Shown: positions 1-47,057, counted from the first letter of the stretch. The stretch: DNA of 64,000 nt from Patescibacteria group bacterium (GCA_041660605.1 JBAZWB010000002.1:170408-234407); one strand, 5' to 3'. The notes: generated by a model not told the origin, from the letters alone. Program-made: numbers and translations.

Positions 1-978
1 TATATCCATAATCCAATTTTTATTAAAATGGGCGCGACGGGCAATTTCGTTATACATAAAACTGGCTCCGTAATCGGATAAAAAGAACGCTTCCACCCGT
101 CTGTTACGGACATAGGAGTGATAGCGAGCCTGTGTTATTATCCTACGGAAATTTGGTTTAGGCTTCACTTTATTAAGTGCCCATTGATATTCCTCTTTGA
201 TTTTCTGCGGCGAGCTTAAATGGATGAGCTCATTTAACCCTTTTTTATCGCTCCAAGCTTGCCTAATCCGGGCAATTATATTGGAAAAGGTATAGGCCTT
301 GCTTGTTGCCAGGCCGCGATTGATATAGGCGTATGCATCCAGATGGCGTTCAATGATTTTTTTCGCCTGAGGAGACGGTTTAGATAAATTCTCTCGCTTC
401 TTTTTAAACTCCTTGGCAATTTTCATCAGCTTCCATTTCTCATTAGCCACGTCAGTCATCTGCCGCGGATCGGTAAATATTAAAACAATTTTTCGGAAAT
501 CAGGATGATCGGCCGGCAGATATTTAACTAGCTCAATTTCAATGGTCGTTTCAAAATACTCATCAAGCGGGTACTGCGTGTACCACGAGCATGTCACATA
601 ACGGTACTTGTTTAACTGGGTATCCAGCACTTCACTAATCTCCTGGTTGGATTTTTTCGCCCAATCAATTTTTTTTAGCTGCAACCCGCGCCGGTACAGA
701 TCATTGTATTTAACAAATTCTTTTCGATAGAAATGCTCCAGCCAATTTTTCTTATACTTCACGTAATCAATGATTTCCTTTTCAAAAGCATCATACTCCT
801 TCGCCGGCCAGTACATCATGTGATGAAGATACGTTCGGTTCACCATATGATGTTTAAAACCGATAGCGGCTGAAATTTTGTGGGAAAATCCCGAATTGAT
901 TATAAACCGCAAAAAAATTGGCAGCTTCCCGGAGGGCTTGATCCGCCAATCGCCGTATCGTTGCACTGCTGAGGACAT
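1..978 (-). CDS. partial CDS (N-terminal part only; the 3' end runs off the window start). Helical protein, possibly a further paralogue of the downstream swivel-domain array
   Basis: An uninterrupted minus-strand frame runs from ATG at 976-978 (MSSAVQRYGDWRIKPSGK...) to position 1 with no stop. The Lys/Tyr/Trp-rich helical composition resembles the N-terminal halves of the array members. The C-terminus is not visible. Confidence 0.4.
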   Translation of the reverse strand, partial: MSSAVQRYGDWRIKPSGKLPIFLRFIINSGFSHKISAAIGFKHHMVNRTYLHHMMYWPAKEYDAFEKEIIDYVKYKKNWLEHFYRKEFVKYNDLYRRGLQLKKIDWAKKSNQEISEVLDTQLNKYRYVTCSWYTQYPLDEYFETTIEIELVKYLPADHPDFRKIVLIFTDPRQMTDVANEKWKLMKIAKEFKKKRENLSKPSPQAKKIIERHLDAYAYINRGLATSKAYTFSNIIARIRQAWSDKKGLNELIHLSSPQKIKEEYQWALNKVKPKPNFRRIITQARYHSYVRNRRVEAFFLSDYGASFMYNEIARRAHFNKNWIMDI

Positions 979-1000
979 ATTATTTATTATTAATATTAAA

Positions 1001-2566
1001 CTATTTCAATATTACCTTATTATAGCTACTTTTTAATTTCCGGACAATTCCCTGCTCCATATCCATTTCTACGCGATCGCCCGTTTTTAATACCCGGGTG
1101 GCAACTTTACAGCCGATAATGCAAGGTTTTTTTAGTTCACGTGATATAATCGCCGCATGGCAAGTTAAGCCTCCCTCATCAGTTATCACTGCTTTGGCGC
1201 GCCGCAAATAAGGGATAAAATCAGGTCGGGTCATAGTGGTGACTAAGATATTGCCGGAAGAAAACTTTTGCTTATTGACATCCATCACTACCTGCACTAC
1301 GCCGGTCATTTTTTTTACCGGCGCGCTGGCCACCTGTCCGGTTACAATCATGGATTTTATTTTTACTCCCAGCTTGAAAGCTTTGAATATTTGCCGGGCC
1401 TGACGGCCATAATAAATTGTTGGAATGGCCTGATGGCCATGCTTGACGATGGCATAAACAGATAACTTCCTGCGCGCTTTGGCAATTTTTTGATCAAGGC
1501 GCCGGCCGTTCAGCAATAAATTCTTAACCTCCTTATATAAATAGTATTTAACCTCCCAAATGTTTATGGCAAAACGCCTGGCCAGCTCTTCGCAAAAAAG
1601 AGTAATAAAATGACTGGCTATAAGCATATGCTGTTTGCGATCATCAATCAATTCTCCAAAATACCGCACTAAGAATAAATGCAGCCTTAAATCGGGGGAG
1701 AAATGATATTTTGCCGATATTTTATGATGTTCTTGCCTTAGACGTACGGTTTTTGTATTTAAACTGGCAAGTTCATTTTTTAACTTTTGATATGAATTTT
1801 TTCTAATTTCCTCCGTTATCTCCAGGAAATACTGTTCTCTGGTAATAACCCGCGTTTGTGCAAATGAATTCCTGGTCCAAAAATAAAGCTTCTGCAGCCT
1901 GGTGATTTCTTTCAGCCATTTTTCCGAAGAGATATCCGAGAGACTGATTTTTTTTCGCTTTTTAATCTGGCGATGCAGGCCTAAACAAATTTCCAAAAAC
2001 AACCGCCGCTCTTGTTCAATAAAGCTTAGATGTGCTGGCATAGCCATCAGGCTGGTAATCTCCCTGGCTGCGGCTTCAGGTACTGCCGGCAATTCATCCG
2101 CAACCAACGGTTCCAGATAATATGCAGTGAAAACGTCCACGCACTCCCAAGCAGCGCCGAATCGCAAAAAATCAATATAACTCTGCATAAAAGACTCATA
2201 GATCCGCCAGAACTTCTGGTTTGATAATTTATGCTTATTTTTTCCAAAATACTGCCCCAAGGTTACAAACTTTTTTCTTTTTTTTACCTGACGCTTTTTT
2301 AAAGCTAAATACCGATTATTTATTTTTGATTTGTTAAAAATATATTTATACACCTCATACTTCTCCTGCTCCGGCGTTTCTTCGTAGAAAAAATCATCCT
2401 GGAAAGGCAAAACGGCAATTGTCAGATATTTCGGATGGAAATACCTGGACTGCTCAATGAAAGCATGCATTATTTGCGCAACACAATGATAAGCAGCCGG
2501 CGCTTTCTCCTCCCACCAGCTGATATTTTTAATAGTTTTCTGTAACTGAGCAAAATCCATAAGCAA
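1001..2566 (-). CDS. PEP-utilizing-enzyme mobile (phosphohistidine swivel) domain protein, array member 1 (521 aa)
   Basis: The C-terminal block TRPDFIPYLRRAKAVITDEGGLTCHAAIISRELKKPCIIGCKVA..VEMD matches the PEP-utilizers swivel domain with the catalytic His. The N-terminal ~430 aa are helical with no PPDK_N ATP-grasp motifs. Confidence 0.8.
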   Translation of the reverse strand: MLMDFAQLQKTIKNISWWEEKAPAAYHCVAQIMHAFIEQSRYFHPKYLTIAVLPFQDDFFYEETPEQEKYEVYKYIFNKSKINNRYLALKKRQVKKRKKFVTLGQYFGKNKHKLSNQKFWRIYESFMQSYIDFLRFGAAWECVDVFTAYYLEPLVADELPAVPEAAAREITSLMAMPAHLSFIEQERRLFLEICLGLHRQIKKRKKISLSDISSEKWLKEITRLQKLYFWTRNSFAQTRVITREQYFLEITEEIRKNSYQKLKNELASLNTKTVRLRQEHHKISAKYHFSPDLRLHLFLVRYFGELIDDRKQHMLIASHFITLFCEELARRFAINIWEVKYYLYKEVKNLLLNGRRLDQKIAKARRKLSVYAIVKHGHQAIPTIYYGRQARQIFKAFKLGVKIKSMIVTGQVASAPVKKMTGVVQVVMDVNKQKFSSGNILVTTMTRPDFIPYLRRAKAVITDEGGLTCHAAIISRELKKPCIIGCKVATRVLKTGDRVEMDMEQGIVRKLKSSYNKVILK

Positions 2567-2604
2567 ACTTATAAAAAATTATGCACCTAAATTTTTGAAT
2601 AATT

Positions 2605-4062
2605 TTATTTGACTATTTTTATCAGCCCATGGTTCGCCCTGACTTCAACAATCATGCCATCTTTCAACACTTTCGTGGCGATTTTTGTGCCGATAACGCA
2701 GGGCAGGCCAAGTTCACGCGCAACAATAGCAGCATGACAGGTGATACCGCCTTCATCTGTCACAATGGCGGAAGCCTTTTTCAGGGCGGGTAAAAACTCC
2801 GGCCGGGTCATTGAAGCGACAATCACGTCGCCCTGGCCTACCTTGCTCAGGGAGGCGATGTTGCGGCAGACCGTAACGCGCCCGACCGCCGTACCGCCAT
2901 TGGCCACCGAACCATGTATGGAGCTGCCGTCGGCGGCTGAGCGCTGTTCCACTGCGCGGATCAAAGGCAGAAGCTTGCGGTATTGTTGGCCACTAACTTT
3001 ATATTCTCCGTCTTTTTCCATTAAAATCAACATGCCCAGCTGCCTTTGCCGCAATAGAGGTGATATTGATTTTAACGCCTTTATTGAACGAACTGACAAT
3101 GATTCGTTTACCCCAAGCTGATAAATTTGTTCAACAGTTAAATCAGACCGGCGGGCTAATTCACGCGCCACTAAAGCTAAGTATGAAACATTTCTAAGGA
3201 TGTTAGCTTTCCTGCTATCCTGCCAAATCGTGGTAAATTCAATCAAATTGATAAATTCTCTAAGCGACCGGCTAATTTTCAGACGGGCGAGCAAACGCAG
3301 TTTTTTCCTGCGAACAGACCCGGGATTAACCAGCTTGATTGATCGAACAGCTTCAAGCCGGCGCATAAAGTCATTGATCGTTAATTTTTTCGGGCCGCTA
3401 TAGCTGTTTTGAATCCAGAAATATTTTTTAAGATGCACGGCAAGGTTTTTCTTGCGTAACGACCTCGGCAAACGGGCGATACGCTGTAAAGCGGTTTCCT
3501 GCTGACCGATAAAAGACGCTTCCGCCGGGGTAGTCAAAAGGTTATAAATCTCATTAAAATCCGGCTGTACGCCGATCGACCGCAGCAGCATAGATTTGAA
3601 TTCCTTTTCTGCGGCGACACTGATTATCTCAACTAAATGACCGACTCCTACCGTATCTATCTGCGCCTGCACAGAATGGCGAAAAAAATCCATTAACTCG
3701 TCCTCACTAAGACGGTGCAGCACTGTCTTGCTGATTTTTACTTGAAACGCCTCAGCTTCTGAGATTTTTTTATCGTATAATCGTTTAACCTTTACCAAGT
3801 AATTTTTATCTCGCTTCAAAAGTATTTTTATCTTCTGCCAAATGGCGGCAATATCTGTATTCAAATAGGCCATCTCCCCGTAGCCATCACGATAATGGAA
3901 GAGGAAGCCGTGATAGCCGAAACCAAGATCATGCCTCATGTTAATACCGCTAATGGCCGAGGGGCCGAGAAATAGTGGCACAGCATTAAATCCCTGAACA
4001 TACCAGTCCAGATTTATGGCCTTTTTTATTTTTTTAAAATCATTCATTATAAAATTTTCCAA
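2605..4062 (-). CDS. PEP-utilizing-enzyme mobile domain protein, array member 2 (485 aa)
   Basis: The C-terminus TRPEFLPALKKASAIVTDEGGITCHAAIVARELGLPCVIGTKIATKVLKDGMIVEV matches the swivel domain. The N-terminus carries the shared motifs KKYFWIQNSY and IWQDSRK...ELARR. Confidence 0.8.
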   Translation of the reverse strand: MENFIMNDFKKIKKAINLDWYVQGFNAVPLFLGPSAISGINMRHDLGFGYHGFLFHYRDGYGEMAYLNTDIAAIWQKIKILLKRDKNYLVKVKRLYDKKISEAEAFQVKISKTVLHRLSEDELMDFFRHSVQAQIDTVGVGHLVEIISVAAEKEFKSMLLRSIGVQPDFNEIYNLLTTPAEASFIGQQETALQRIARLPRSLRKKNLAVHLKKYFWIQNSYSGPKKLTINDFMRRLEAVRSIKLVNPGSVRRKKLRLLARLKISRSLREFINLIEFTTIWQDSRKANILRNVSYLALVARELARRSDLTVEQIYQLGVNESLSVRSIKALKSISPLLRQRQLGMLILMEKDGEYKVSGQQYRKLLPLIRAVEQRSAADGSSIHGSVANGGTAVGRVTVCRNIASLSKVGQGDVIVASMTRPEFLPALKKASAIVTDEGGITCHAAIVARELGLPCVIGTKIATKVLKDGMIVEVRANHGLIKIVK

Positions 4063-4077
4063 TAAAATTAATTTATG

Positions 4078-5643
4078 TCAACTTCTCTTAATCACCGTAA
4101 CCACGCCGTGGTTGCCATTAACTTCTACAATGTCGCCGTTCCGCAGAACTTCAGTGGCGATCTTCGTGCCGATGACGCACGGGATATTTAACTCACGTGC
4201 GACTATGGCTGCGTGGCAGGTGACGCCTCCTTCGTTAGTAACAATGGCCGCCGCTCTTTTCATGCCCATAATATAATCCGGACGGGTCATCACGGCCACC
4301 AGCACGTCGCCAGGCCTGACATTTTTAGTTTCCGTAGCGCTTTTTACGATTCTGGCCGGTCCGCGCGCCACACCCCGGTTTGCCGACAAACCGCGAAAAT
4401 CATTGACTGCCTGCAAAGATCTTTTCTCAAAAATTTTCTTAAACGTCCCCCGGGCGTTGGAGGTAATTACTTCATACTTATCTGCTCCTAATTGCAGCCA
4501 TAGGCATTTTTTCCATCTGGCACGCGCTTCCTGCGGTGTCACTAGGGGCCTGGCAAAAAGCGAATCAACCTCCGGTGGCGCCAAATACTTCATCTCCTGC
4601 AGAGTAAATCCGAAGCGCCGGCCGATTTCTTTGAGCAGAATACTGCCGTAATGCGTGGACCAATAGGTCATTTTCTTACGATTGTCCTGCCACCAGGTGA
4701 AATCCTCGGAGATTTCCAGAAGCACACGGATTTTTTTTGGCGGATTAAGTTTCTTCAGTAATATTTTTTTCTCCTGAAGGCTGCGCTGAGGCGTAGCCAC
4801 AATCTGCCTGATCTGCTGGCCAATATTAATGCTGGATTTGAACACGGCCTTCAGCTCACCAACCCACTTATTTACATCCAGATAATTATTGTGGACATAG
4901 TTATTCTTACTCCAGAAATAGTCCTGCTCCTGCTTCTCTAGCAATTTTATAATAGCTGGATAGTAACGAACGATTTTTTGTAGATTTTTTATTGGGCGCT
5001 TCCGAAAGGCTCGACTCAAGACTGGGATTCCTTTGACTCTATTCGCTATACGCAATAAGCTGACCTCCGCTTCATTGATAAACGAATGGTGCACAGGAGC
5101 AGTAAGAACGGAAAAAAATCTGGATAACTGCTTCTCCAATCCCTTTGCTTTTAATACCATCATCAATTCTTTTTGGATCAGATAGTCAGTGCCCAGGGCA
5201 AAACCATCGATGATTGAACTGGATGTGACGAATTTCAAATCACGCCGGATATACTCATCGTACAATTTTACTAAATTTTCATTATCTAATTGTCTCAAAT
5301 GCTCCCAATCAGTGTCCAGACAAAACCGGTAAAACGCCGCTTCATCAGCAGACCAACGCTTCATTAATCCCTTGGTGAAATGCTTTTTATGCATGGCCAA
5401 ATCAGTCAACCGTTTCGCAATGCGATCAATGTCCTCCTGATCAATATACCAGTCCGATTTATCCTGTTCAAACAAGCCGAAGTGGCTGGTGGCATGGCAA
5501 CCAAACTTGCGCGCTTCTGACGCCAACTCGGCCATGGAAATGAGAAAAATAAAATGCGGGCTGCCATCAAACCGCTGATGGTACCACTTTTTACCCTGGA
5601 TTAGAGATAAATTCCTTTTTATCAACCCCTTAACTGGCTTCAT
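4078..5643 (-). CDS. PEP-utilizing-enzyme mobile domain protein, array member 3 (521 aa)
   Basis: The C-terminus TRPDYIMGMKRAAAIVTNEGGVTCHAAIVARELNIPCVIGTKIATEVLRNGDIVEV matches the swivel domain. The N-terminus has the motifs DYFWSKNNY and WWQDNRK. Confidence 0.8.
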   Translation of the reverse strand: MKPVKGLIKRNLSLIQGKKWYHQRFDGSPHFIFLISMAELASEARKFGCHATSHFGLFEQDKSDWYIDQEDIDRIAKRLTDLAMHKKHFTKGLMKRWSADEAAFYRFCLDTDWEHLRQLDNENLVKLYDEYIRRDLKFVTSSSIIDGFALGTDYLIQKELMMVLKAKGLEKQLSRFFSVLTAPVHHSFINEAEVSLLRIANRVKGIPVLSRAFRKRPIKNLQKIVRYYPAIIKLLEKQEQDYFWSKNNYVHNNYLDVNKWVGELKAVFKSSINIGQQIRQIVATPQRSLQEKKILLKKLNPPKKIRVLLEISEDFTWWQDNRKKMTYWSTHYGSILLKEIGRRFGFTLQEMKYLAPPEVDSLFARPLVTPQEARARWKKCLWLQLGADKYEVITSNARGTFKKIFEKRSLQAVNDFRGLSANRGVARGPARIVKSATETKNVRPGDVLVAVMTRPDYIMGMKRAAAIVTNEGGVTCHAAIVARELNIPCVIGTKIATEVLRNGDIVEVNGNHGVVTVIKRS

Positions 5644-5663
5644 AATATATTATTATATGAAAA

Positions 5664-6251
5664 CTACGAATATTTTTTTATTAATAATCTGGCTGCTTCT
5701 CCAATATCCTCAACGCGGTAAAAAATAAATTTTCCTTGAGTAGTTATTCCCCACTCCAGTATAACATTTTTCAAGGTTATTTTCCTCTCAGCCTGCAATA
5801 CTTTTTTACGTTCAGCCGATGTTAAAACATTCCGATCTCCAACTACCGCAGTCAGCTTACCTCGTTTATAAAAATAACTGGCTTCCACTTGCCCATGCCG
5901 CATCAAGTCAACAATCGCACCGCGCCGTGCTTCTATGACAGTACGGTTTTTTTCCAGCAGGACGGTTCCGGCTTTTTTCCACTTCCATGACGGGTAAATA
6001 ACGAATAAAGCTTTGTTCTTGTGTTTTTTCTGCAGTTTATCAACCACAGAAGGCACATCTTTTTTAGCCACCCAGTTGGCATAATGATTCATCCATGGGC
6101 CATTAAACACTTTCACGGTCCTGATGGTCCAGCCGACATAATCTTTAATCCTGGCTAAATTTTTTATCTCCCGGGAACTGCTGACAAACTGCCAGGTCGG
6201 ATGGGGAAATTCGTATTTATCAATTATTTTTAAACCTTGGTAAATGGTCAT
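5664..6251 (-). CDS. hypothetical protein (195 aa) lying between array member 3 and the IS200-like transposase
   Basis: Complete ORF tightly spaced with its neighbours. It has no recognisable motif and is possibly cargo of the adjacent insertion element. Confidence 0.45.
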   Translation of the reverse strand: MTIYQGLKIIDKYEFPHPTWQFVSSSREIKNLARIKDYVGWTIRTVKVFNGPWMNHYANWVAKKDVPSVVDKLQKKHKNKALFVIYPSWKWKKAGTVLLEKNRTVIEARRGAIVDLMRHGQVEASYFYKRGKLTAVVGDRNVLTSAERKKVLQAERKITLKNVILEWGITTQGKFIFYRVEDIGEAARLLIKKYS

Positions 6252-6269
6252 AGCTCGGGGCCTTTCGGA

Positions 6270-6833
6270 TTATAAAACTTTAGTTTTATCAAACTTACCA
6301 TGTACGCCGGTATAATCAATAATGGGATAATAATACTCGGTATTATTTAAAAATTCCTTCCCGAGCTTATTTTTATAGTAATTATAACTGGAAAACATAT
6401 AATTGCCATTAGCAGCTGCATAGCCGTGTTTGACTGGATTATGGTGGATGTAATTAAATCTTTTAAAAAAATCTTTTTCCTCATGAATACAGCGGTCCCA
6501 ATAGTTCCACCAAATCTTATGACCCGGAGTATTATCAAGCTTATTTATATCATATGAACTCCCGCCATTAATAAATTTAATAATTTTACTCAATTCAGTG
6601 CCTTTACCCAAGGCGAATAGAATATGGTAATGGTTAGGCAATGCTACCCAGGCATGGAGTGTAATTTTAAACTTTCTTCTGGCCTGTTCTAATCGATTAA
6701 CTAATAGTATAAGCTTTTCTTTTGAATTAAAATATTTCTTCTTATCAAACGTACGCGCGGCAACAAAATAAGTTTGGTTATCCAGATATAAATGGAAAGG
6801 AATGTGCTTTTTAAATTTATTTTCTTTTATCAT
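6270..6833 (-). CDS. IS200/IS605-family (Y1 HUH) transposase-like protein, TnpA or REP-associated tyrosine transposase type (187 aa)
   Basis: The HUH motif is present in VALPNHYHILFALG. The segment YIHHNPVKHGYAA matches the IS200-like Y..NPVKAG signature. The size is typical of IS200 TnpA. Confidence 0.65.
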   Translation of the reverse strand: MIKENKFKKHIPFHLYLDNQTYFVAARTFDKKKYFNSKEKLILLVNRLEQARRKFKITLHAWVALPNHYHILFALGKGTELSKIIKFINGGSSYDINKLDNTPGHKIWWNYWDRCIHEEKDFFKRFNYIHHNPVKHGYAAANGNYMFSSYNYYKNKLGKEFLNNTEYYYPIIDYTGVHGKFDKTKVL

Positions 6834-6854
6834 AAATCTATCTTCGGCTTCACT

Positions 6855-6912
6855 CAGATTAAAAAAGATTTATAAACCGAAACCCGACTTCGGACTATCA
6901 AGCTTTAGCTTG
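6855..6912. repeat. two short hairpin-forming palindromes (CCGAAacccgacTTCGG and CAAGCTttAGCTTG) immediately 5' of the HUH transposase gene
   Basis: Both inverted repeats are read directly from the sequence. IS200/IS605 ends carry subterminal hairpins that TnpA recognises. Confidence 0.4.
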
Positions 6913-6924
6913 ATAAAAAACTCC

Positions 6925-8376: not shown

Positions 8377-9697
8377 TTTTATTTATTTTTATAATAATCC
8401 CCTTATTAGCATCTACTTCCACTTTATCTCCATTTTTCAAAACCAGCGTGGCAATTTTCGTACCAATAATACAGGGTTTTTTCAGCTCCCGTGCAATAAT
8501 AGCGGCGTGGCAGGTGAGCCCACCTTCATCGGTCACAATCGCAGCTGCCTTGCGAATCGCGGGTAAATAATTTGGAGTGGTCATGTGTGCAACCAATATA
8601 CCACGTAATTTGAAACGCCGTATATCAGCAGAATTTCTGACTATTTGAACTCGTCCAATAATATTTTTTTCAGGGCCAAAAGCAACTTGGCCTCGTAAAT
8701 CAATAGAGGATAAGGAAATTTTTGGTGACTCCCGCAGCATTTTCGCACCGTGACCGGAAAAAGAAAAGGCTTTCCCATTCTTTATCATAAACCCATACAA
8801 CTGCAGACGTTTTTGGATTTTTCGCAACGGAACAGCATCTCCGCGAAGGCAACCGGCAATTTCTTCAGCCGACATCGCGGTGACCTTTTCCCAACCCAGA
8901 CGACAGCGCCTGGCGCTCTCTTTCAGCAATCGCCGATAGTTATACTCTGCCTTCATAAATTCCTCTGCCTCTAGATTCCGATCGTGTGATAAAATTTTCA
9001 TTTCCGTAACGAGTGGCCCACGTAAAGAGATTGAATGCTTTTTCGAAATACTTGATGATCGAATATTTTTTGAATCCCTAATAATTTGCCGCTCCGTGAG
9101 CTCGTCACCGATGAAAAAAAAGCTTCCAAGCCAATAATATTTTTCCAGAATTTTTCTTACTTGGGTTTTTAAAATGCGCTTATTACTGATGGATGCCAGC
9201 TGTGCAACTTCATGATTATAGCTAGTTAATGAAGTTTGGTCATTAAAAAACATTTGAGAATATCTTTTACCGTATTTTTTCAGCAATTGCCGGTTTAGAT
9301 AGTCCGTATAGAGTGTACCCAGGCCTAGAAAACTGTTTACCCGCGCATACAAATCATCAGCCGCGAGCAACCTGACGGCTAGTTGTCCATTGGTAAGATT
9401 ATGGCGCTGCTGGCTAATTTTTATTAATCCTGAAATACTTTTTCGATATTCCTTGCGCCTCATCCTGATATATCCGTTTACTCCGCCCAAAGCTTGGTGA
9501 ATACTCCTATACAATTGCGCGAGTTCACGCTGATAGGTGATAAAACTAAAATGAGCATGATCAATATATTTATAATTCCACAAAAGATGAGGGAGACCAG
9601 AAAACACGCGCATATAGTGGTTGATACACTTAAATACCCCATTATGCCTCGCTAAGTAGGTACTTGCTTTTGAGCCAAATTTAATCCAGGTGCCCAT
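8369..9697 (-). CDS. PEP-utilizing-enzyme mobile domain protein, array member 5 (442 aa)
   Basis: The C-terminus TTPNYLPAIRKAAAIVTDEGGLTCHAAIIARELKKPCIIGTKIATLVLKNGDKVEVDANKG matches the swivel domain. Its start overlaps the stop of member 4 by 8 nt. Confidence 0.8.
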   Translation of the reverse strand: MGTWIKFGSKASTYLARHNGVFKCINHYMRVFSGLPHLLWNYKYIDHAHFSFITYQRELAQLYRSIHQALGGVNGYIRMRRKEYRKSISGLIKISQQRHNLTNGQLAVRLLAADDLYARVNSFLGLGTLYTDYLNRQLLKKYGKRYSQMFFNDQTSLTSYNHEVAQLASISNKRILKTQVRKILEKYYWLGSFFFIGDELTERQIIRDSKNIRSSSISKKHSISLRGPLVTEMKILSHDRNLEAEEFMKAEYNYRRLLKESARRCRLGWEKVTAMSAEEIAGCLRGDAVPLRKIQKRLQLYGFMIKNGKAFSFSGHGAKMLRESPKISLSSIDLRGQVAFGPEKNIIGRVQIVRNSADIRRFKLRGILVAHMTTPNYLPAIRKAAAIVTDEGGLTCHAAIIARELKKPCIIGTKIATLVLKNGDKVEVDANKGIIIKINKNA

Positions 9698-9732
9698 ATT
9701 ACAAAATCTTATTTATTAACCCATGCCTGCTT

Positions 9733-9830
9733 TATTTTCATATTTTTTTCACTACTCCTTTGGTGGCATCCACCTCTACTCTATCCCCATTTTTTGCCGA
9801 TTTTGTCCCTGAAGACAAGCGAAGTGCTGA
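9733..9830 (-). pseudogene. 3'-terminal remnant of another swivel-domain paralogue (encodes ...LRLSSGTKSAKNGDRVEVDATKGVVKKI*)
   Basis: The reverse complement of 9733-9806 translates to KNGDRVEVDATKGVVKKI followed by a stop. This is the same C-terminal consensus seen in the intact array genes, and no upstream body is present. Confidence 0.5.
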
Positions 9831-9914
9831 CTGAAGGGGTACAAAATCGAGTATCCCGCTGACCCCTGAAGCTGAGCCTGCCGAAGCTGAAGGGGATAGC
9901 GGGAAAAAACTGCC

Positions 9915-11006
9915 TCATATTTTCCTAACAACCCCATTATAGGCATCAACCTCTATTTTGTCACCATCCTTGAACACTTTTGTGGCAATTTTCGTACCAA
10001 TAATACAGGGAATACCGAGCTCTCGCGCTACTACTGCCGCGTGCGAAAGCATCCCGCCCTCATCCGTGACTATAGCGCTGCAACGTCGGATAAACCTGAT
10101 ATCATCCGGATGAGTCATGGGCGAGACCAAAATAATTTTATTTTTTCGGGCTGGGCGTTTGTGTGATTTCGCCAGCAGAATATTAAAAACTATGCCTCGC
10201 ACTATTCCCGGATGTGCCACATGGCCGCTGACAACCTTTTGCCCTCTGGTGTTAAAAAAATTATTTAATAAACTCCTGGCTGCACGATTATCTGCCTGCA
10301 CAGTTTCCTGATTATTCCGCAATAAATAGACAAACCCGCGTGTCCGCTGGCGTAACCCTCTAATTTGTTTTTTAGATAAAGCCCTGCCATTCAGAAAAAA
10401 ATTCATTTCATTTCTCGTCATAGCTAGCAGTAATTCTGGCTTGAGATGCAGGGGCTTGCCAAGCTGACCCATAGCAGTACGCAGCCAGCCTTCAACCACC
10501 GAGTAAAACCTGCCAACCTGATCACGCTGTTTAGCGATTAACACGACAGATTTCCTTGGCAGTACGCGGGTTTCCTGGGCATCACCGAGATAGCGCATCA
10601 AGGCACTATAAATTCCCAAACTGATGAAGTAGCGCGGAAATTCATTAATGGCCAAACTAATAAATTTTTTTGGATTTTTTCTCGCACCTGATGCGGACCG
10701 CCGCAGCCGCAAAGAAATTTGGTGATACATGCTTTGCGCTAATTTAAGTGTAGTACTGAGCCAGTGGTGGCTGTTTTGCAACGCTTGTCCAACTTTTCTG
10801 CCAATGTCTTCCTGATTCATTAACGTCAAACATTCTCTCCTGTCGCCAACGCCTCCGATTATGGTATACCGGAAACCAATTGCCCGCTTTAACTGACGAT
10901 AATAAGCTTCGCTAACGCAACTCAATGTAAAAATAGAAATTGGACGCCTTACTCCAGTAGTTAAATTATACTTTTTAATAAAAGAAGCTGATAATAGGCT
11001 ACCCAT
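9915..11006 (-). CDS. PEP-utilizing-enzyme mobile domain protein, array member 6 (363 aa, shorter N-terminal domain)
   Basis: The C-terminus THPDDIRFIRRCSAIVTDEGGMLSHAAVVARELGIPCIIGTKIATKVFKDGDKIEVDAYNG matches the swivel domain. Confidence 0.75.
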   Translation of the reverse strand: MGSLLSASFIKKYNLTTGVRRPISIFTLSCVSEAYYRQLKRAIGFRYTIIGGVGDRRECLTLMNQEDIGRKVGQALQNSHHWLSTTLKLAQSMYHQISLRLRRSASGARKNPKKFISLAINEFPRYFISLGIYSALMRYLGDAQETRVLPRKSVVLIAKQRDQVGRFYSVVEGWLRTAMGQLGKPLHLKPELLLAMTRNEMNFFLNGRALSKKQIRGLRQRTRGFVYLLRNNQETVQADNRAARSLLNNFFNTRGQKVVSGHVAHPGIVRGIVFNILLAKSHKRPARKNKIILVSPMTHPDDIRFIRRCSAIVTDEGGMLSHAAVVARELGIPCIIGTKIATKVFKDGDKIEVDAYNGVVRKI

Positions 11007-11008
11007 AA

Positions 11009-12085
11009 TTATTTTTGTAACAATTTTACTTGCCCACGCGTTGCATCCACCTCCACCTTATCACCATCTCTTAAAACTTGAGTGGCGATTTTCGTACCGA
11101 TGACGCAAGGGATCCTTAATTCGCGGGAAATAATTGCAGCATGCGATGTAATTCCGCCCTCATCAGTAATAATAGCTTTTGCCCTCTGGTATGCCAAGAT
11201 AGTATCAGGGCGAGTCATCTCGGTTACTAAAATTTCATTTTTTCTGAATTTTCTGATTTGATTGGAGATATTATGCGATTTGTGGAGTACCAACCTTACA
11301 CTACCCCTGACTTTTCCTTTGTACGCTATTGTACCAGTAATTGCTTGTTTTGAATTAGTAAAATAATGATTAACCCATTTCCATATTTTTTTATATTCCT
11401 GACCGGTTAAAATAATTTCCCGACCACCCATTTTCCATAAAAGATATCCCTTTTTTCTACGCGAAATTAACTTTTGCGGAACACTTTTCCCTGTAAACAC
11501 TTTATTTATCTCTTTGCTGGTATAAAAATATAAATCTTGAGCGGCAATATTGAAACTTTTCCCAACTGTTGTTAGCAATTCTTTAAAAAGCAGATAAAAA
11601 ACTTGCTCGCCGGCCTTCCGCAGTTTAAAACGCAAGCGGCCAAGCTGATGCATTGTTTTTTTCTCCTTGGCACTGGCCAATGATTCAAATTTTTTTAGCC
11701 TCACCTCCTCAGTCCAGGTATAAATATTACTGTATCTATTGAGCAAGGAAACCATTTCCTCAAATAAAACCTTCAGCTGTCTATTACTCAACTTTTTGAT
11801 ATCAGTATTCCCGTATTTTTTGATGAATTGCCCAATTTGAAAAATAATTCGATCAGCATTTTTATGATACGCAGCAAAAGCGCCTGCCTGACTAAAAAAA
11901 CGGTGGCCTTTCTGGATTTCCTCATTATAACGGCCATTAATAAAATACAGATGTAAAACCGATTTATTATAAAAACACAGTAAATTATCATTTAAAATTA
12001 AATGGCGCTTATCAGTCAGCCAAAAAAGCGGTAACAAATATTCACGCGCCCAAAATTCTACTGATTTAATTTCTGATAAGCTCAT
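11009..12085 (-). CDS. PEP-utilizing-enzyme mobile domain protein, array member 7 (358 aa)
   Basis: The C-terminus TRPDTILAYQRAKAIITDEGGITSHAAIISRELRIPCVIGTKIATQVLRDGDKVEVDATRG matches the swivel domain. Confidence 0.75.
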   Translation of the reverse strand: MSLSEIKSVEFWAREYLLPLFWLTDKRHLILNDNLLCFYNKSVLHLYFINGRYNEEIQKGHRFFSQAGAFAAYHKNADRIIFQIGQFIKKYGNTDIKKLSNRQLKVLFEEMVSLLNRYSNIYTWTEEVRLKKFESLASAKEKKTMHQLGRLRFKLRKAGEQVFYLLFKELLTTVGKSFNIAAQDLYFYTSKEINKVFTGKSVPQKLISRRKKGYLLWKMGGREIILTGQEYKKIWKWVNHYFTNSKQAITGTIAYKGKVRGSVRLVLHKSHNISNQIRKFRKNEILVTEMTRPDTILAYQRAKAIITDEGGITSHAAIISRELRIPCVIGTKIATQVLRDGDKVEVDATRGQVKLLQK

Positions 12086-13578
12086 GATATTTTTTTAACT
12101 ACGCCTAGCTTCGCATCCACCTCAACGCGGTCGCCGTCTTTTAAAACGCTGGTGGCCGTCTTCGTGCCAACAATACAGGGTTTTTTCAGCTCCCGGGCAA
12201 CGATGGCTGCGTGGCAGGTGATGCCGCCCTCGTCAGTGACAATCGCCCGGCACTTGCGCATGGCCGGCACAAAATCAGGGTGCGTGGTAACCGCAATCAT
12301 AATATCGCCCTGCCTGATTTTCCGTAAGTCATGCTTGGTATAGATTACCTGTGCCGAACCCACCACCTGCCCGGGCGAACCCGCCATCCCGTGCAGAATA
12401 CGCGTTTCGTGAATACACTGGCCGCCAAGTTCCTGCTTGATCATTTTTTTAAGCTCTGGGCCTTGCATCACGACAACCTCGCCCCCATGCTTCCGCAATA
12501 ATCCATAAGCTTTAACCCGTGTCTTTAATACTGTTTTGTCCACTGGTAATTTTCCCTGCGTAAGGTAGGCAATCATTTCCTTTCGGATTAGATGGGTTAT
12601 TTCTTTAATAGTAACGCCTGCCCGACGGGCTAACTCATGATAAAGCGGTTGGATATTGTGGCTACCTAAACGGCGGTAATCATCGCGCTGATCCTTAATA
12701 AACGACATTTCATGCGCCATAATCAATAGTTCTCGCTGGCGGGGAGTAGGATACAGCTCATGCAATATTTTCTTGAACATCCGCTGGCGGTAGGGGAAAC
12801 GTTTTCTTAGCTGGCTTAACTCAAGCTTTAGACTAGCAATATTCTTCCGGAGCAACTTGTTTAATTCCGACATAAAGTATTCCCTTGTCCATGGCTTATC
12901 ATTAATGTCATAACATGGCAGCCAGCGGTACTTCTGCCAGTGGAGATTAATCAGGCGGCCAATAGCTGCTTGCTTCAGCCGAGGCTGGCTTTTTGTCCAA
13001 ACAGCCAGCTTAAGTAAATTTTCATGTTCGCTAATTACAGCATTCTTTTTTTCCGGTGAAAATATTATCTCAACAATTTCCTCCGTATCCGACACGCGCT
13101 GGTGCTGACGGAGGAGCTTTTGCAGCTCTTGTTCGGCGACCTGCGAAATAAAAGGTTCCGTAATAAATGGCACCCAGATCGGGCCATTGAAAAAATCCAG
13201 ATGCAGCCGATCAAACGCTAAATAACGTCTTCTCAGCTCTCTCCATGATAGTTTAGTCAGGTTACCGTTGGCCAGCTTCTGCGCGCCGCTGCCATATCTA
13301 ACCTGCCATCGCCGGACCAACTGCATATAGTAATGAAAAGTTGGCAGGTTTTTACAGGTGCCGTAATATACTTTTTTGGTAAAACGCTGCCATTCTGCAT
13401 TTTCATAATATATCGTATGATTGCCACGTTCGGGAGCGACCAGGTTGTTCTGCAGACTGGCATGAAAACGCTTCCGGTAGAAATCCGAAATAAAAACCCG
13501 GATGACAATTTCGAACCGCTGGCTGCAGAATTTCCGGGAAAAATAATGGGTCCAAACTATTTTTTTATCTTTACTCAT
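12082..13578 (-). CDS. PEP-utilizing-enzyme mobile domain protein, array member 8 (498 aa)
   Basis: The C-terminus THPDFVPAMRKCRAIVTDEGGITCHAAIVARELKKPCIVGTKTATSVLKDGDRVEVDAKLG matches the swivel domain. The start codon overlaps the stop of member 7 in an ATGA arrangement. Confidence 0.8.
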   Translation of the reverse strand: MSKDKKIVWTHYFSRKFCSQRFEIVIRVFISDFYRKRFHASLQNNLVAPERGNHTIYYENAEWQRFTKKVYYGTCKNLPTFHYYMQLVRRWQVRYGSGAQKLANGNLTKLSWRELRRRYLAFDRLHLDFFNGPIWVPFITEPFISQVAEQELQKLLRQHQRVSDTEEIVEIIFSPEKKNAVISEHENLLKLAVWTKSQPRLKQAAIGRLINLHWQKYRWLPCYDINDKPWTREYFMSELNKLLRKNIASLKLELSQLRKRFPYRQRMFKKILHELYPTPRQRELLIMAHEMSFIKDQRDDYRRLGSHNIQPLYHELARRAGVTIKEITHLIRKEMIAYLTQGKLPVDKTVLKTRVKAYGLLRKHGGEVVVMQGPELKKMIKQELGGQCIHETRILHGMAGSPGQVVGSAQVIYTKHDLRKIRQGDIMIAVTTHPDFVPAMRKCRAIVTDEGGITCHAAIVARELKKPCIVGTKTATSVLKDGDRVEVDAKLGVVKKIS

Positions 13579-15071
13579 AGTCTTTTAATTATACCCTTAT
13601 TTGCATCCACCTCAACCATTTCGCCATTTTTAAATAACCGCATGGCAAAACGGGTGCCCACCACACAAGGTATTTCCAATTCACGGGAAATAATTGCGGC
13701 ATGCGAAGTCAGGCCGCCTTCATCAGTGACGATCGCGCCGGCCCTACGAATCAGCGGTACAAAATCCGGCCTGGTCATATATGTCATCAGCACTTCGCCT
13801 TTTTTTAATTTTTTCCCCTGCAAACCAGGTGTCTCAATCTTTCTGACACGCCCGCGATAATATCCCGGCGAAGCCGCTATGCCTTTCAATTCATTAACGC
13901 CACTTTTTAAATTCATCTCATTAATAATTTTCCAAATAGCGGCAAGCTGGCGGCCGGTTAAAATACCTTCCTGGCCATCGGCAAAAACATAATACAGCAT
14001 TCCCGATATTCTTTTTTTCAGATCCGCTCGGACAATTTTTTTTCCTTTAATGCTGGCAATGAACTCCTGCGGTATTAAATGCTGAGCCTCTGAAACCGAT
14101 AAATTGGAAATTTTCGTTACCTGGCTAATAAAACGATTGCACCAATAATTACCCAATAAATTAGCCACTTTTCTCTCATCCTGCCAATGGGCGGCGAAAC
14201 CGATGCGCTTCAGCTTTTTTATTTCCTCCTTGGATAATTTGGTCTTTTGTTCTGCCTGATGCTGCCGCCGACGTAAATCCTTTTCATAGTTTTTTAAATA
14301 GATATGCCTATTATTAATTTTCTGGTAATTTTCACTATCAAGCATTCTTAACTGGCTGTAAAATTTCCCCAATGACAACGGCTTTGTATCGCGATAGTTA
14401 AAATGCATCCAGTAATATTCTTTTTGGATCTTAATTAATTTTTGATAAGCCGCCGGCTGTTTCTTCTTAAAAATTTCCAGAGTTTTTGGCAATCTGCCTT
14501 TCAATTTCAAATACAAATCAAGCAGTCCCAGCTCTGCCATTTGTAAAAATGCCAGTTTTGGTGGGCTGGCAAATAATATGATATCCTCGTCAATTTTTGA
14601 TAAAAACCCATATTTACTCTTTAAGTTTTTAATCAATTTATCACCAGCCAGGGAAAAATACTCGGTAATCAAAGGCAGGCTGTATTCATACAAATATAAA
14701 TTATAAAAATTAAGGAAATCCCGCTGCAAATTTTTGATCCCCCTATGCGCCAGGTGATCTAAATTTTTATAATACCGTCTTTTATCCTTCTCCCACTGAA
14801 AATATATTTTGTTTACAAAATCAACATGGCCTAAACACCACTCACCCAGTTTGGTTAATTCGTCTTCGTCAAAAATCCAATACGCGCGATTGCCCCCATT
14901 GAAGGAAGCGATAATAATTTTTTTCGCTTGTAAAATAGGGAATCGCCGGTGCATAATCTTCGTTATTGCCTCAGCTGGTATGATAAACATTAGAGGTACG
15001 CCAACTCCGCCTTGGATTACCCAGCGCTTTGTGTTTATTAATATTTTCTTTTTTGTACTTTTAAAATTCAT
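13575..15071 (-). CDS. PEP-utilizing-enzyme mobile domain protein, array member 9 (498 aa)
   Basis: The C-terminus TRPDFVPLIRRAGAIVTDEGGLTSHAAIISRELEIPCVVGTRFAMRLFKNGEMVEVDANKG matches the swivel domain. The N-terminus has KEYYWMHFNY and HWQDERK. Confidence 0.8.
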   Translation of the reverse strand: MNFKSTKKKILINTKRWVIQGGVGVPLMFIIPAEAITKIMHRRFPILQAKKIIIASFNGGNRAYWIFDEDELTKLGEWCLGHVDFVNKIYFQWEKDKRRYYKNLDHLAHRGIKNLQRDFLNFYNLYLYEYSLPLITEYFSLAGDKLIKNLKSKYGFLSKIDEDIILFASPPKLAFLQMAELGLLDLYLKLKGRLPKTLEIFKKKQPAAYQKLIKIQKEYYWMHFNYRDTKPLSLGKFYSQLRMLDSENYQKINNRHIYLKNYEKDLRRRQHQAEQKTKLSKEEIKKLKRIGFAAHWQDERKVANLLGNYWCNRFISQVTKISNLSVSEAQHLIPQEFIASIKGKKIVRADLKKRISGMLYYVFADGQEGILTGRQLAAIWKIINEMNLKSGVNELKGIAASPGYYRGRVRKIETPGLQGKKLKKGEVLMTYMTRPDFVPLIRRAGAIVTDEGGLTSHAAIISRELEIPCVVGTRFAMRLFKNGEMVEVDANKGIIKRL

Positions 15072-16530
15072 TTCTCAATTTTTTTACATAACCGGAGTTG
15101 GCATCAACCTCTACTTTGTCACCATCCTTGAACACTTTAGTACCTATTTTCGTCCCTATTATGCAGGGCTTACCTAATTCACGGGAGATAATCGCTGCGT
15201 GGCAGGTGATGCCGCCCTCATCGGTTACCACCGCTGATGCCCTTTTCATTGCTGGAGCAAAATCCGGCGTCGTCATGGAAGTTATCAGAACATTCCCCTG
15301 CTTTAGTCTGCCTAAGATATCACCCGCTTGATGCGATACCCTGGCAATACCCCTGGCCTTGCCTGGCGAAGCTGCTATACCTTTTATCTTGTCAATATTG
15401 GCAAAATTTTTCCGCCCAAAAACTTGGAGCTGCTTGTCTTTTGCCTTTTGGCCGCCTAAAACAATAAACTTACCCCTAGTGGCTTCGCAATACAAATATT
15501 TCTGGCGGCTTCGCACTTCCTGCCAGTCAATTGCTTTATTTATCATAACCTCGTTTATTTCCTCGGGTGTGCACCATAAAAGATCGTTAAAACTGATCTG
15601 CCTTTGCCGATTTATAAATTCCCGTAATAACAGACGGCTGGCATACATGGCCTTCATCTGAATTTCTTTCCTCCAATCATGCAAAACCGCAATTTTTTCA
15701 ATCAATTCTAAATATGAACTAATTTTTTCCGGCAGATGATATTTTCTTTTTATTTCACTTTTTTTGCGTTTGATGTTTTTAGGAAAATTCCTGGCTTCTT
15801 TGATCTTTTGATCAAGCTGTTCGGGCGTAAAATTTAATAACTGCTTAATTCTGGTTTTAATATCGGCTATAGTCTGAATTTCAACGTAGCCCCAGCCAAG
15901 TGAGATCCACCAAAATTCATTATAATGCCTCATGATCAAGGCATCTTTGCGTTTCCTGACGAGCTTGTCTTTTATTTTTCTGGCAATAGTTAAAAGGCTC
16001 AGCTCTTCCTTTTGTAAATATGTAGGCTTAGTGGGGGTTAATAGTATATTTTGGGCATAATGATCCGTTGATGGTATCAGCTTATTGAGCAGTGGCGGCA
16101 AGATCACCTCTAAAGCTTCATCAACGCCATCCAAAGGCATTCCCAAATTAGCAAAGTGCAGATAATTACTGCTGAATTCCGTATATGATTTATAAAGAGC
16201 TTTATTGGAATACTGCTTTAAATTTGCGGTAACAATTTCTTCAGTAAAACTAATATTCTTTTTCTGCCAATACTTCCAGATACGGAGATAAGTATTTTTA
16301 AATTTATCTGAATTTATCAATCTATCCGCTATTCTTATGCCATACTTTAAATTATCTTTATAAGGATAAAACCAGCTTAAATTTTTTCCGGTTGAGATGT
16401 AAATAATCCTGCTAAAATCAATATCTAATTTTGAAAGGTTATGATTTACAGGGCCAATAACCCAATAGTAAAGCACCTGGGGTACGCAATTACCACGGCT
16501 ATACTGCATCCATTTTGTGCCAATTATCAT
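15061..16530 (-). CDS. PEP-utilizing-enzyme mobile domain protein, array member 10 (489 aa)
   Basis: The C-terminus TTPDFAPAMKRASAVVTDEGGITCHAAIISRELGKPCIIGTKIGTKVFKDGDKVEVDANSG matches the swivel domain. The N-terminus has NEFWWISLGW and HDWRKE. Confidence 0.8.
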   Translation of the reverse strand: MIIGTKWMQYSRGNCVPQVLYYWVIGPVNHNLSKLDIDFSRIIYISTGKNLSWFYPYKDNLKYGIRIADRLINSDKFKNTYLRIWKYWQKKNISFTEEIVTANLKQYSNKALYKSYTEFSSNYLHFANLGMPLDGVDEALEVILPPLLNKLIPSTDHYAQNILLTPTKPTYLQKEELSLLTIARKIKDKLVRKRKDALIMRHYNEFWWISLGWGYVEIQTIADIKTRIKQLLNFTPEQLDQKIKEARNFPKNIKRKKSEIKRKYHLPEKISSYLELIEKIAVLHDWRKEIQMKAMYASRLLLREFINRQRQISFNDLLWCTPEEINEVMINKAIDWQEVRSRQKYLYCEATRGKFIVLGGQKAKDKQLQVFGRKNFANIDKIKGIAASPGKARGIARVSHQAGDILGRLKQGNVLITSMTTPDFAPAMKRASAVVTDEGGITCHAAIISRELGKPCIIGTKIGTKVFKDGDKVEVDANSGYVKKLRNEF

Positions 16531-18374: not shown

Positions 18375-18394
18375 ATAATTATTATTTAATATTT

Positions 18395-19744: not shown

Positions 19745-19761
19745 AGAGATGCTATTTTAAT

Positions 19762-36824: not shown

Positions 36825-36918
36825 GGGAGAGGGATTAATACATTCACCCTTGGGCTATTAATCAGTCCTTCCTCTCCCTCCGGGAGAGGAACCGAAGGTG
36901 AGGGGGTTATACTACAAA
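36803..36918. repeat. copy B of the ~107-bp palindrome-containing repeat. It begins exactly at the leuS stop codon and extends to the DUF559 start
   Basis: It contains CTCTCCCCATGGGAGAGGG and TTCCTCTCCCTCCGGGAGAGGAA inverted repeats. It is a direct repeat of copy A, and the pair brackets the DUF559 gene. Confidence 0.6.
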
Positions 36919-39900: not shown

Positions 39901-40047
39901 AGGATAGGGGAACATATCCAAAACATAAAATTTGGGAGACGAGCTGTTTTCTTTCGTGTCCCAAATTCCTTCCTGCTCCCATTGCTTCTGCCACTTTTTT
40001 TCTACCCGACTGCTGTCGTATTTTATATTCATAACTGATTGAATCAT
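36907..40047 (-). CDS. leuS: leucine--tRNA ligase (LeuRS) carrying an inserted alpha/beta-hydrolase domain (1046 aa)
   Basis: The HIGH motif is HVGHPEGY and the KMSKS motif is QKMSKSRGN. The CP1 editing domain is present ([19 protein letters not shown] ... [15 protein letters not shown]), as is the [19 protein letters not shown] segment. The protein is ~190 aa longer than typical bacterial LeuRS because of an insertion at aa ~450-640. Confidence 0.9.
38127..38700 (-). other. alpha/beta-hydrolase (YdeN/RBBP9-like serine hydrolase) domain embedded in LeuRS between the CP1 editing domain and the catalytic core
   Basis: The segment [14 protein letters not shown]...[13 protein letters not shown]...[12 protein letters not shown]...MPGKSHFSE has an HG oxyanion motif, the GHSLG nucleophile elbow, and Asp and His in the canonical triad order. 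It is in frame and flanked by LeuRS sequence on both sides. Confidence 0.75.
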
Positions 40048-46800: not shown

Positions 46801-47057
46801 TATTTTATAAATATGATGACCAAAGCCAGTCTTCAGAATTTTTACATAAACCGGCCTTAACGGGATTCAAATGAATATAATTAATCTTTTCTGTTAATTT
46901 TTTATCAGAATAAATATTGAAATCGTAAAACGAGAGCTGCCAGATTTTGTTTTCAATCGGGGTATGTACCGCTCCTGCATCTTTCCATTTGTAACCCGCG
47001 GGTAGCGGCGAGCCCGCCCGCCTCTGGGACGGGTGCGGTGTGTTTAGAAAAAACGTA

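Follow-up and report, generated by a model that had tools for sequence, protein, structure and literature searches.

The left end of a 64,000-nt stretch of DNA from a Patescibacteria group bacterium (GCA_041660605.1 JBAZWB010000002.1:170408-234407, hereafter the window) is occupied by a 16.5 kb array of genes whose products all end in a phosphohistidine swivel domain (PF00391), which an original prediction, made from the sequence alone, had described as a head-to-tail series of divergent paralogues. Open reading frame (ORF) listing of the window returned ten complete minus-strand ORFs of 358-521 aa at 1001-16530, each exactly where it had been placed. The suspicion that a further copy is truncated by the window edge was also borne out: positions 1-978 encode only the N-terminal 326 aa of this copy (p0), and the source contig (ENA ERZ27249449 k141_729649, 960,449 bp), which was read past the left window edge and whose locus (L086) is identical to the window across the 15,643-nt overlap, contains p0 as a complete PF00391 protein of 494 aa. 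Therefore, the array consists of 11 complete copies and one remnant. The copies p0 to p10 are referred to as H-type (substrate-binding part plus swivel domain), while I-type denotes a stand-alone ATP-grasp protein. The features of the array are as follows.

1-978, minus strand: p0, H-type, N-terminal 326 aa in the window, 494 aa on the source contig; swivel motif GGLSSHAA
1001-2566, minus strand: p1, H-type, 521 aa (519 aa on the source contig); PF00391 E 6.7e-24; His470
2605-4062, minus strand: p2, H-type, 485 aa (480 aa on the source contig); PF00391 E 8.5e-24; His443
4078-5643, minus strand: p3, H-type, 521 aa; most conserved, universal subfamily; structure modelled
5664-6251, minus strand: miniature ATP-grasp protein, 195 aa, without Pfam match; probable accessory or alternative nucleotide-binding partner
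6270-6833, minus strand: REP-associated tyrosine transposase (RAYT); NF047646 E 1.5e-30; PF01797
6925-8376, minus strand: p4, H-type, 483 aa; PF00391 E 2.6e-25; His442
8369-9697, minus strand: p5, H-type, 442 aa; PF00391 E 5e-25; His397; without close orthologue in the sampled loci
9733-9830, minus strand: 3′ remnant, the last ~30 swivel-domain codons of a lost copy (translation; repeat family D2)
9915-11006, minus strand: p6, short H-type, 363 aa; PF00391 E 4.2e-25; His322; swivel loop GGMLSH
11009-12085, minus strand: p7, short H-type, 358 aa; PF00391 E 4.1e-25; His315
12082-13578, minus strand: p8, H-type, 498 aa, overlapping p7 by 4 nt; PF00391 E 5.8e-25
13575-15071, minus strand: p9, H-type, 498 aa, overlapping p8 by 4 nt; PF00391 E 8.8e-24
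15061-16530, minus strand: p10, H-type, 489 aa, first of the array; PF00391 E 9.3e-24; His444

The junctions between these genes are operon-like. The 4-nt overlaps claimed at 12082 and 13575 are present, but the gaps of 1-20 nt claimed for all other junctions are not what is found there: overlaps of 11 nt (at 15061) and 8 nt (at 8369) occur together with gaps of 2-44 nt, a gap of 217 nt (9698-9914) in which the remnant lies, and two unrelated genes set between p4 and p3 (between 6925 and 5643). The remnant itself is real, as its translation ends in KNGDRVEVDATKGVVKKI followed by a stop codon and its nucleotides 9740-9795 cluster with the 3′ ends of the swivel-coding segments (repeat family D2). 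The RAYT gene is a mobile-element gene inside the array and not a functional part of the system; RAYT homologues also lie within the arrays of two related loci (L046, 9235-9609; L009, 7926-8432), and a weak RAYT-like remnant is seen at 46811-46951 of the window.

At the protein level, PF00391 matches all ten complete window ORFs with E values of 3e-26 to 9e-24 (cutoff 23.1 bits) over nearly the whole of its 72-position model, in agreement with the assignment of the shared C-terminal block to the swivel domain. The catalytic His, reported earlier for every copy, is indeed retained in 11/11, and 42-52 residues separate it from the C-terminus in p1-p10. Across the 80 related loci described below, the strict motif is found in 295 of 317 copies, and most of the others are HVS, HAS or HAG variants in which the His is kept. 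Two residues before the His stands Thr (252 of these 295 copies; 9/11 in the window, with Leu in p6 and Ser in p0). Searched by sequence, Pfam, NCBIfam and PDB offer matches to no more than the C-terminal ~100 residues, the best being to phosphoenolpyruvate (PEP) synthases (E 9e-26). Specifically, matches to the NCBIfam PRK08296 models are confined to the swivel region, and those to models resembling rifampin phosphotransferase (Rph; PRK06241 group) extend in some copies 80-100 residues upstream of it. A Pfam search gave no match to the ATP-grasp domain PF01326 or to the PEP/pyruvate-binding barrel PF02896 in any copy. The H proteins thus have no ATP-binding domain and cannot be complete enzymes, a point that the original prediction had missed.

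For the remainder of the protein, the relationship that could be detected is to Rph, so that the analogy with this enzyme drawn originally was well chosen. Structure comparison with a model of p3 identifies the N-domain, a long helical bundle, as a structural homologue of the rifampin-binding domain of Rph, the sole whole-length structural relative found, at 15% identity. A full-length family profile likewise aligns Rph at profile positions 192-505 (E 3e-24), placing W318-Q-D320-x-R322-K323 of the family on Y-R666-E667-Y-P-K670 of Rph (native numbering, i.e. the alignment count minus a 12-residue tag offset). In this sequence profile alignment D320 pairs with E667, K323 with K670 and Q319 with R666; the R666A and E667A substitutions in Rph abolish the second phosphotransfer and leave the ATP-side partial reaction intact (PMC4844700). 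The N-terminal profile retrieved, in a word-limited search, 359 proteins of ~500 aa, nearly all with a C-terminal PF00391 domain, from Patescibacteria and Nanoarchaeota, which are named only 'PEP-utilizing enzyme', 'phosphohistidine swiveling domain-containing protein' or 'phosphoenolpyruvate synthase/pyruvate phosphate dikinase'. The possibility that the N-terminal parts are fragments of the PEP synthase PpsA or of pyruvate phosphate dikinase (PPDK) was ruled out, since entries of Pfam, NCBIfam and PDB match these proteins by sequence nowhere but in the swivel region and the fold is that of the Rph ligand-binding domain; the genes are intact, as had been argued before.

The copies are deeply diverged paralogues, more so than the 20-35% identity once claimed for their N-terminal parts, which in global alignments are only 12-22% identical to p3. 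Identities over the full length amount to 21-29%, and full-length paralogues of the window are pairwise at most 33% identical. Nevertheless, the N-terminal parts have common motifs (SF..E..LL.IA, YFW..N, WQD.RK and E..ARR), and D320, R322 and K323 are each retained in 8-9 of the 11 copies, with W20, L196, W244, R343, E358 and R376 also kept in most copies of the window. On the other hand, of 44 residues that never vary within the p3 subfamily, just 8-25 are kept by the sister copies; the conserved residues of this subfamily are rich in polar and charged side chains. Such retention of core residues, but not of subfamily-invariant ones, is what would be expected if one chemistry were applied to different ligands, and a conserved phospho-shuttle joined to diversified substrate-binding parts, as originally proposed, is still the best reading.

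Comparison with other genomes indicates that the paralogues are differentiated lineages. Specifically, p3 is 84% identical over its full length to its orthologue in a close relative (L001) and 43% to that in a Nanoarchaeota contig; p8, p2 and p1 are 65%, 59% and 46% identical to their L001 orthologues; p4 is 50% identical to a partial copy in L001 and 36% to copies in L002 and L005; and the N-domain of p0 is 70% identical to that of a copy in L010, with p0-type copies (at least 30% identity over at least 70% of the length) in 12 loci. By these sequence identities p0-p4 and p8 have orthologues elsewhere at 46-84%, as against at most 33% between full-length sisters. At synonymous sites the orthologue pairs have probably diverged too far for dN/dS to be of use. 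The N-domain of p9 is 43% identical to that of a copy in L009, and p5, p6 and p7 have no close relative among the sampled loci. Because p0-p4 and p8 are far closer to orthologues in other genomes than to their sisters, the suggestion of an arms-race or toxin-modifying family with ongoing birth and death of copies is poorly supported; faster turnover is hinted at only for the upstream half (p5-p7, p9 and p10) and by the remnant.

A tblastn search of the window with three stand-alone ATP-grasp proteins as queries gave no match. On the source contig, just beyond the left edge of the window, lies a gene that the original prediction missed: a 314-aa protein with a full-length PF01326 domain (E 1e-92) is encoded on the array strand (L086, 19624-20568), 3.5 kb downstream of the last H gene. 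Next to the array come a HAD hydrolase gene and a gene for a 353-aa protein with an RH..R histidine-phosphatase-like motif, both on the array strand, then by one opposite-strand gene, and then by the 314-aa gene. The 314-aa protein matches best an archaeal PEP synthase (8a8e, 3e-67), followed by Rph (6e-53) and the stand-alone HpeI structure (9goj, 9e-50). Over the stretch of the source contig that was examined, one canonical I gene thus accompanies 11 H genes. A ~460-aa gene after the ATP-grasp gene and a 469-aa gene before it were considered and found to be unrelated to the H family.

Similar arrangements recur elsewhere, as the search for related arrays, already proposed with the original prediction, showed. 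Two contigs from the candidate phyla radiation (CPR) and a Nanoarchaeota contig carry arrays of 3 to at least 10 copies, each near a stand-alone PF01326 gene of ~280-315 aa. A wider sample was obtained using p3-subfamily N-domains only as the probe, which confirmed 113 loci in GTDB species representatives; 80 of these were fetched, and the counts given here cover 10 kb on either side of each locus (20-kb loci). The 80 loci represent many CPR phyla and, among the DPANN archaea, Woese-, Nano-, Micr- and Iainarchaeota. Arrays are the rule in this family: the loci hold a median of 4 H copies (at least 5 in 39 loci, at least 8 in 10, maximum 10), which are co-directional in 78/80, and a p3-type copy is present in 78/80, partly owing to the design of the probe. 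A stand-alone ATP-grasp gene is found in 34 of the 80 loci, compared with a chance expectation of ~2% (a rough, uncomputed estimate that assumes one such gene per ~1 Mb genome). All but one of 35 such genes share the strand of the array, and the median distance to the closest H gene is 69 nt; 17 are downstream of the arrays, 12 inside and 5 upstream. Five loci gave matches that seemed to represent a fused ATP-grasp and swivel protein. Three of them (790-927 aa) were rejected as such, for they have the size and N-terminal sequence typical of PPDK/PpsA and are only neighbours of the arrays, two of them on the opposite strand; another match is 1675 aa long.

The family is large and diverse. The 336 N-domains of the sampled loci fall into 108 clusters at 30% identity or more, and the N-domain profile, run against 1.84 billion cluster representatives, gave 5,094 matches at E <= 1e-3 (3,599 at E <= 1e-10), each standing for a cluster at 50% identity. 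When p3-type N-domains are arranged in a neighbour-joining tree, sequences from archaea and bacteria are interleaved, with at least 5 domain switches, and cross-domain identity reaches 60.6% (archaeal L031 and Paceibacterota L049) compared with a within-bacteria mean of 39%; the domain labels are taken from record titles, some of them placeholders. This sequence pattern suggests that p3-type copies have been transferred between the two domains. On the matter of labels, L012 and many 'MAG TPA_asm' loci are titled 'uncultured Gammaproteobacteria', 'Methanosarcinales archaeon' or 'Ignavibacterium sp.' and have CPR/DPANN-like gene content, so that placeholder labels or mis-binning are likely. Several library proteins (P0158, P0161, P0163 and others) are 1,000-2,300 aa long with 2-4 tandem N-domain matches, and are either true fusions of H units or read-through calls across an array, perhaps under an alternative genetic code.

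Recurrent neighbours, counted as loci out of 80, include a HAD hydrolase (17), a TrmB regulator (16), an unannotated ~279-aa protein (15), a second HAD-like protein (13), PTA_PTB (11), a hexapeptide transferase (10), three clusters of RH-motif histidine-phosphatase-like proteins (7, 6 and 5), an M29-like protein (7), a small cytidylyltransferase-like protein (7) and creatininase (5). In L087 the array is followed by genes resembling those of type IV secretion systems (PrgI, TraC-like, VirB4-like), and an APH/choline-kinase-like gene (3249-4298) and an alpha/beta hydrolase gene (4314-5093) are inserted between its H-type genes; other small-molecule-modifying enzymes have therefore been recruited into such loci.

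A further gene overlooked in the original prediction lies inside the array itself. The 195-aa protein encoded at 5664-6251 has no match in Pfam or NCBIfam, and its predicted fold is that of a miniature Rph/HpeI-type ATP-grasp. A first hhalign comparison with ATP-grasps returned a probability of 0.7%, while a deeper profile-profile comparison gave weak agreement (E 8e-4), pairing EKNRTVIEA with DRNQMVIEAGWG and LEWGITTQGKF with DIEWAFEKNKFY. We conclude that the protein is a miniature ATP-grasp of this type. Its family comprises 36 matches, from Patescibacteria-labelled records only, most of them 46-76% identical over the full length, and in three assemblies the gene of a 64%-identical homologue is flanked directly by the last H-type gene on one side and the PF01326 gene on the other. 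No member occurs in the 80 species-representative loci, which therefore makes it a clade-specific accessory; a 198-aa neighbour in L002 was compared as a possible relative and rejected. Phenylphosphate synthase has a stimulatory third subunit, and the 195-aa protein could be an analogue of it, an alternative nucleotide-binding partner or a regulator.

Two-component enzymes of comparable design have been characterized. HpeHI of Rhodococcus, CreHI of Corynebacterium and PpsAB (phenylphosphate synthase) of Thauera are small-molecule dikinases in which, as described for the HpeHI type, the I subunit corresponds to the ATP-grasp of Rph and the H subunit to its ligand-binding and swivel domains (Dexter et al., J Biol Chem 2025, PMC12167813). 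The His attacks the β-phosphate of ATP, the γ-phosphate is hydrolysed and the phospho-His phosphorylates a phenolic substrate; the H-I complex of HpeHI is only transient, and HpeH alone can move phosphate between phosphorylated and unphosphorylated substrates (PMC12167813). The proteins described here resemble these systems in having an Rph-like domain for substrate binding that precedes a C-terminal swivel domain (as judged by architecture and by comparison with Rph), a catalytic His in a T/SxxGGxxxH loop within ~50 residues of the C-terminus, and a separately encoded ATP-grasp (PPDK_N) close to the H genes; in the characterized systems the H and I genes are adjacent, and here they lie 3.5 kb apart. 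They differ in that 11 H subunits accompany one canonical I instead of one H with one I, in the size of the H subunits (~360-520 aa compared with the 71-kDa HpeH), in the extra miniature ATP-grasp of one clade, in the absence of linked carboxylase or aromatic-catabolism genes, and in their hosts, which are reduced-genome CPR/DPANN symbionts and not degraders of aromatic compounds. HpeH, CreH and Thauera PpsA are ~45% identical to one another.

Taken together, the domain content, the fold homology with Rph, the linkage of the genes, the conserved His and D/K motif and the recurrence in both CPR and DPANN lead us to regard the array, with somewhat better than even confidence, as eleven H-type subunits of a split Rph-like dikinase whose separate ATP-grasp would be shared by many acceptors, each probably with its own substrate. 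By analogy with Rph, PpsAB and HpeHI, the H and I proteins would interact physically and carry out dikinase chemistry on small molecules: the ATP-grasp subunit would present ATP, the swivel His of an H subunit would attack its β-phosphate while the γ-phosphate leaves as inorganic phosphate (Pi), and the phospho-His domain would then swing back to its own N-terminal domain, where the phosphate would be transferred to a hydroxyl of the bound molecule with the aid of D320, R322 and K323, yielding AMP, Pi and the phosphorylated substrate. Since the catalytic core is kept and most other subfamily-conserved positions differ, each N-domain probably phosphorylates a different substrate, and a transient H-I complex, as in HpeHI, would make it feasible for one ATP-grasp to charge many H subunits.

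Several observations weigh against this interpretation. A canonical ATP-grasp gene was not found in 46 of the 80 sampled loci, which is not decisive as many arrays run past the 20-kb locus. The residue at -2 of the His is Thr, as in PEP synthases, whereas it is Met in Rph, HpeH, CreH and Thauera PpsA; this Thr loop, along with best matches of both the swivel domain and the ATP-grasp to PEP synthases, indicates a lineage distinct from the characterized two-component dikinases, and its regulation could be different. Rph R666 aligns with Gln and not with Arg, and from the alignment R322 may act as the substitute. A profile of the N-domain only gave nothing beyond chance matches against PDB sequences. 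Finally, p6 and p7 are without the first ~130-160 residues of the N-domain and may bind nothing or act differently.

As to the role of such a dikinase, the polar conserved residues and the linked phosphatases suggest hydrophilic metabolites and a logic of phosphorylation followed by dephosphorylation. For HpeHI, trapping of scavenged compounds has been suggested by its authors (PMC12167813), and given the HAD and histidine-phosphatase-like neighbours it is possible, if speculative, that phosphorylation here traps or activates scavenged metabolites that are later dephosphorylated. A bolder version, which we hold to be less likely than not, is a modular one-to-many dikinase of CPR and DPANN in which one ATP-grasp (plus the miniature one in some lineages) would serve up to a dozen interchangeable acceptors for scavenged host metabolites, phosphatases would release these again, and modules would be exchanged across domains. 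If true, this would represent a core metabolite-capture strategy of ultrasmall symbionts that has so far gone unrecognised.

Among the rival explanations, the one that fares best is an Rph-like detoxification battery in which each copy inactivates a different antibiotic or toxin of the host or of competitors, which would fit an antibiotic-inactivating kinase as the sole whole-length structural relative, the high diversity of the N-domains (108 clusters at 30% identity), a decayed copy and the p5, p6 and p7 genes without close orthologues as signs of turnover, and a CPR resistome survey that counted 'rph' matches in CPR genomes (PMC8651080). We consider it unlikely: the core subfamilies are conserved over CPR phyla and into DPANN (p3-type in 78/80 loci; p0 N-domain 70%), the p3-subfamily conserved residues are rich in polar and charged side chains, and the recurrent neighbours are HAD, histidine-phosphatase-like, PTA_PTB and TrmB proteins instead of resistance, efflux or defence genes. 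Furthermore, the copies score far below the cutoffs of the NCBIfam models for Rph (NF041857, 45-61 bits against 999; NF000283, 33-44 against 1700), and PADLOC returned no significant match, just two marginal ones (E 0.0025 and 0.0034) to unrelated short models. From Rph itself (5hv1, 5fbs) the copies also differ in the absence of PF01326 and in an identity of only 15%. For the variable copies an antibiotic or arms-race reading is possible, though not favoured.

The kinship with PEP synthase raises a different alternative, namely that the proteins run in reverse, forming ATP or PEP, or act as ATP-independent transphosphorylases, as a means of energy conservation in fermentative symbionts. PEP synthase is the nearest match of the swivel domain as well as of the ATP-grasp; PPDK and some PEP synthases are reversible (PMC5371819); HpeH alone catalyses phosphotransfer from substrate to substrate; and PTA_PTB genes (11 loci) and an acylphosphatase gene (L002) adjoin arrays. 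Yet the PF02896 barrel for PEP and pyruvate is absent, few phospho-donors besides PEP can drive AMP and Pi to ATP, as is established thermodynamics, and the co-located phosphatases better fit a kinase followed by a phosphatase; we regard this alternative as improbable. In comparison with PEP synthase and PPDK themselves, the GGxT[CS]HAAI loop with its Thr is kept, but the swivel domain is C-terminal and not central, the substrate domain is of another fold, and PpsA NCBIfam models reach 93-126 bits against cutoffs of 598 and 740.

Swivel domains also work in protein phosphorelays such as enzyme I of the phosphotransferase system (PTS), and it could be supposed that the array encodes regulatory or macromolecule-directed phospho-carriers that relay phosphate to proteins or polymers, as is done by enzyme I of the PTS and by glucan, water dikinase; the long helical bundles of the N-domains and the regulatory-type Thr at -2 would agree with this. 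But the N-domain is homologous to a small-molecule-binding domain and has the residues for transfer to a ligand hydroxyl, and no HPr, EIIA or carbohydrate-binding module is linked at the loci examined, so we give such carriers very little weight. An artefact, whether pseudogenised PpsA/PPDK pieces or a product of assembly or duplication, can be dismissed as the original prediction held, for beside the one real remnant and the transposase-family gene the array retains eleven uninterrupted ORFs (358-521 aa), all of which encode a full swivel domain with its His and none of which has PpsA/PPDK sequence in its N-domain, similarity between copies at the DNA level is limited to a 188-nt swivel-coding segment of 61-71% identity and the p3 gene was read on at least 5 contigs of the public collection, which together make misassembly or repeat collapse implausible, the source-contig locus agrees with the window, and orthologous arrays exist in many genomes.

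The split Rph-like dikinase, if correct, would extend the two-component dikinase class to one ATP-grasp serving many swivel-carrying acceptors, and would offer a natural set of ligand-binding domains of the Rph fold from which substrates could be discovered. The family is common to both great radiations of ultrasmall symbionts, with signs of inter-domain transfer. In the genome studied here, whose largest contig is 0.96 Mb, the array takes up 16.5 kb, or about 1.7% of a ~1-Mb genome, and a commitment of this size in a reduced genome implies that the function is important. In the full-text literature searched, outside which most subscription journals lie, neither these arrays nor this family were found to be described for CPR or DPANN, in keeping with the original statement that no such array was known; the enzyme class as such (PpsAB, CreHI, HpeHI) is already known (PMC12167813), and it is the one-to-many array, its CPR and DPANN spread and the miniature ATP-grasp that appear new. 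Given the missing PF02896 barrel, the C-terminal swivel domain and the different substrate-domain fold, the database name 'phosphoenolpyruvate synthase/pyruvate phosphate dikinase' is misleading, and reconstructions of gluconeogenesis or counts of rifamycin resistance could go astray if based on such names or matches.

The rest of the window is an ordinary CPR chromosome with genes for LeuRS, KsgA, Sua5, a two-component system, GDH and others. Upstream of the array (16674-22944, minus strand) lie three large genes without Pfam matches; a homologous block of ~150 aa is common to the proteins of 16674-18374 and 19762-22944, and the 449-aa protein between them (18395-19744) looks by eye like a protein cluster that adjoins arrays in 6 other loci. 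A gene at 22980-32057 (minus strand) encodes a giant protein of 3025 aa with a CBM_4_9 carbohydrate-binding module and dockerin repeats, which is probably located at the cell surface. The leucyl-tRNA synthetase (36907-40047, minus strand) has an unusual architecture with an alpha/beta serine-hydrolase insert (PF06821, residues 455-639) behind its editing domain, and a single ORF at 51100-52362 (minus strand) combines signal peptidase II (Lsp) with a PP2C-type protein phosphatase domain.

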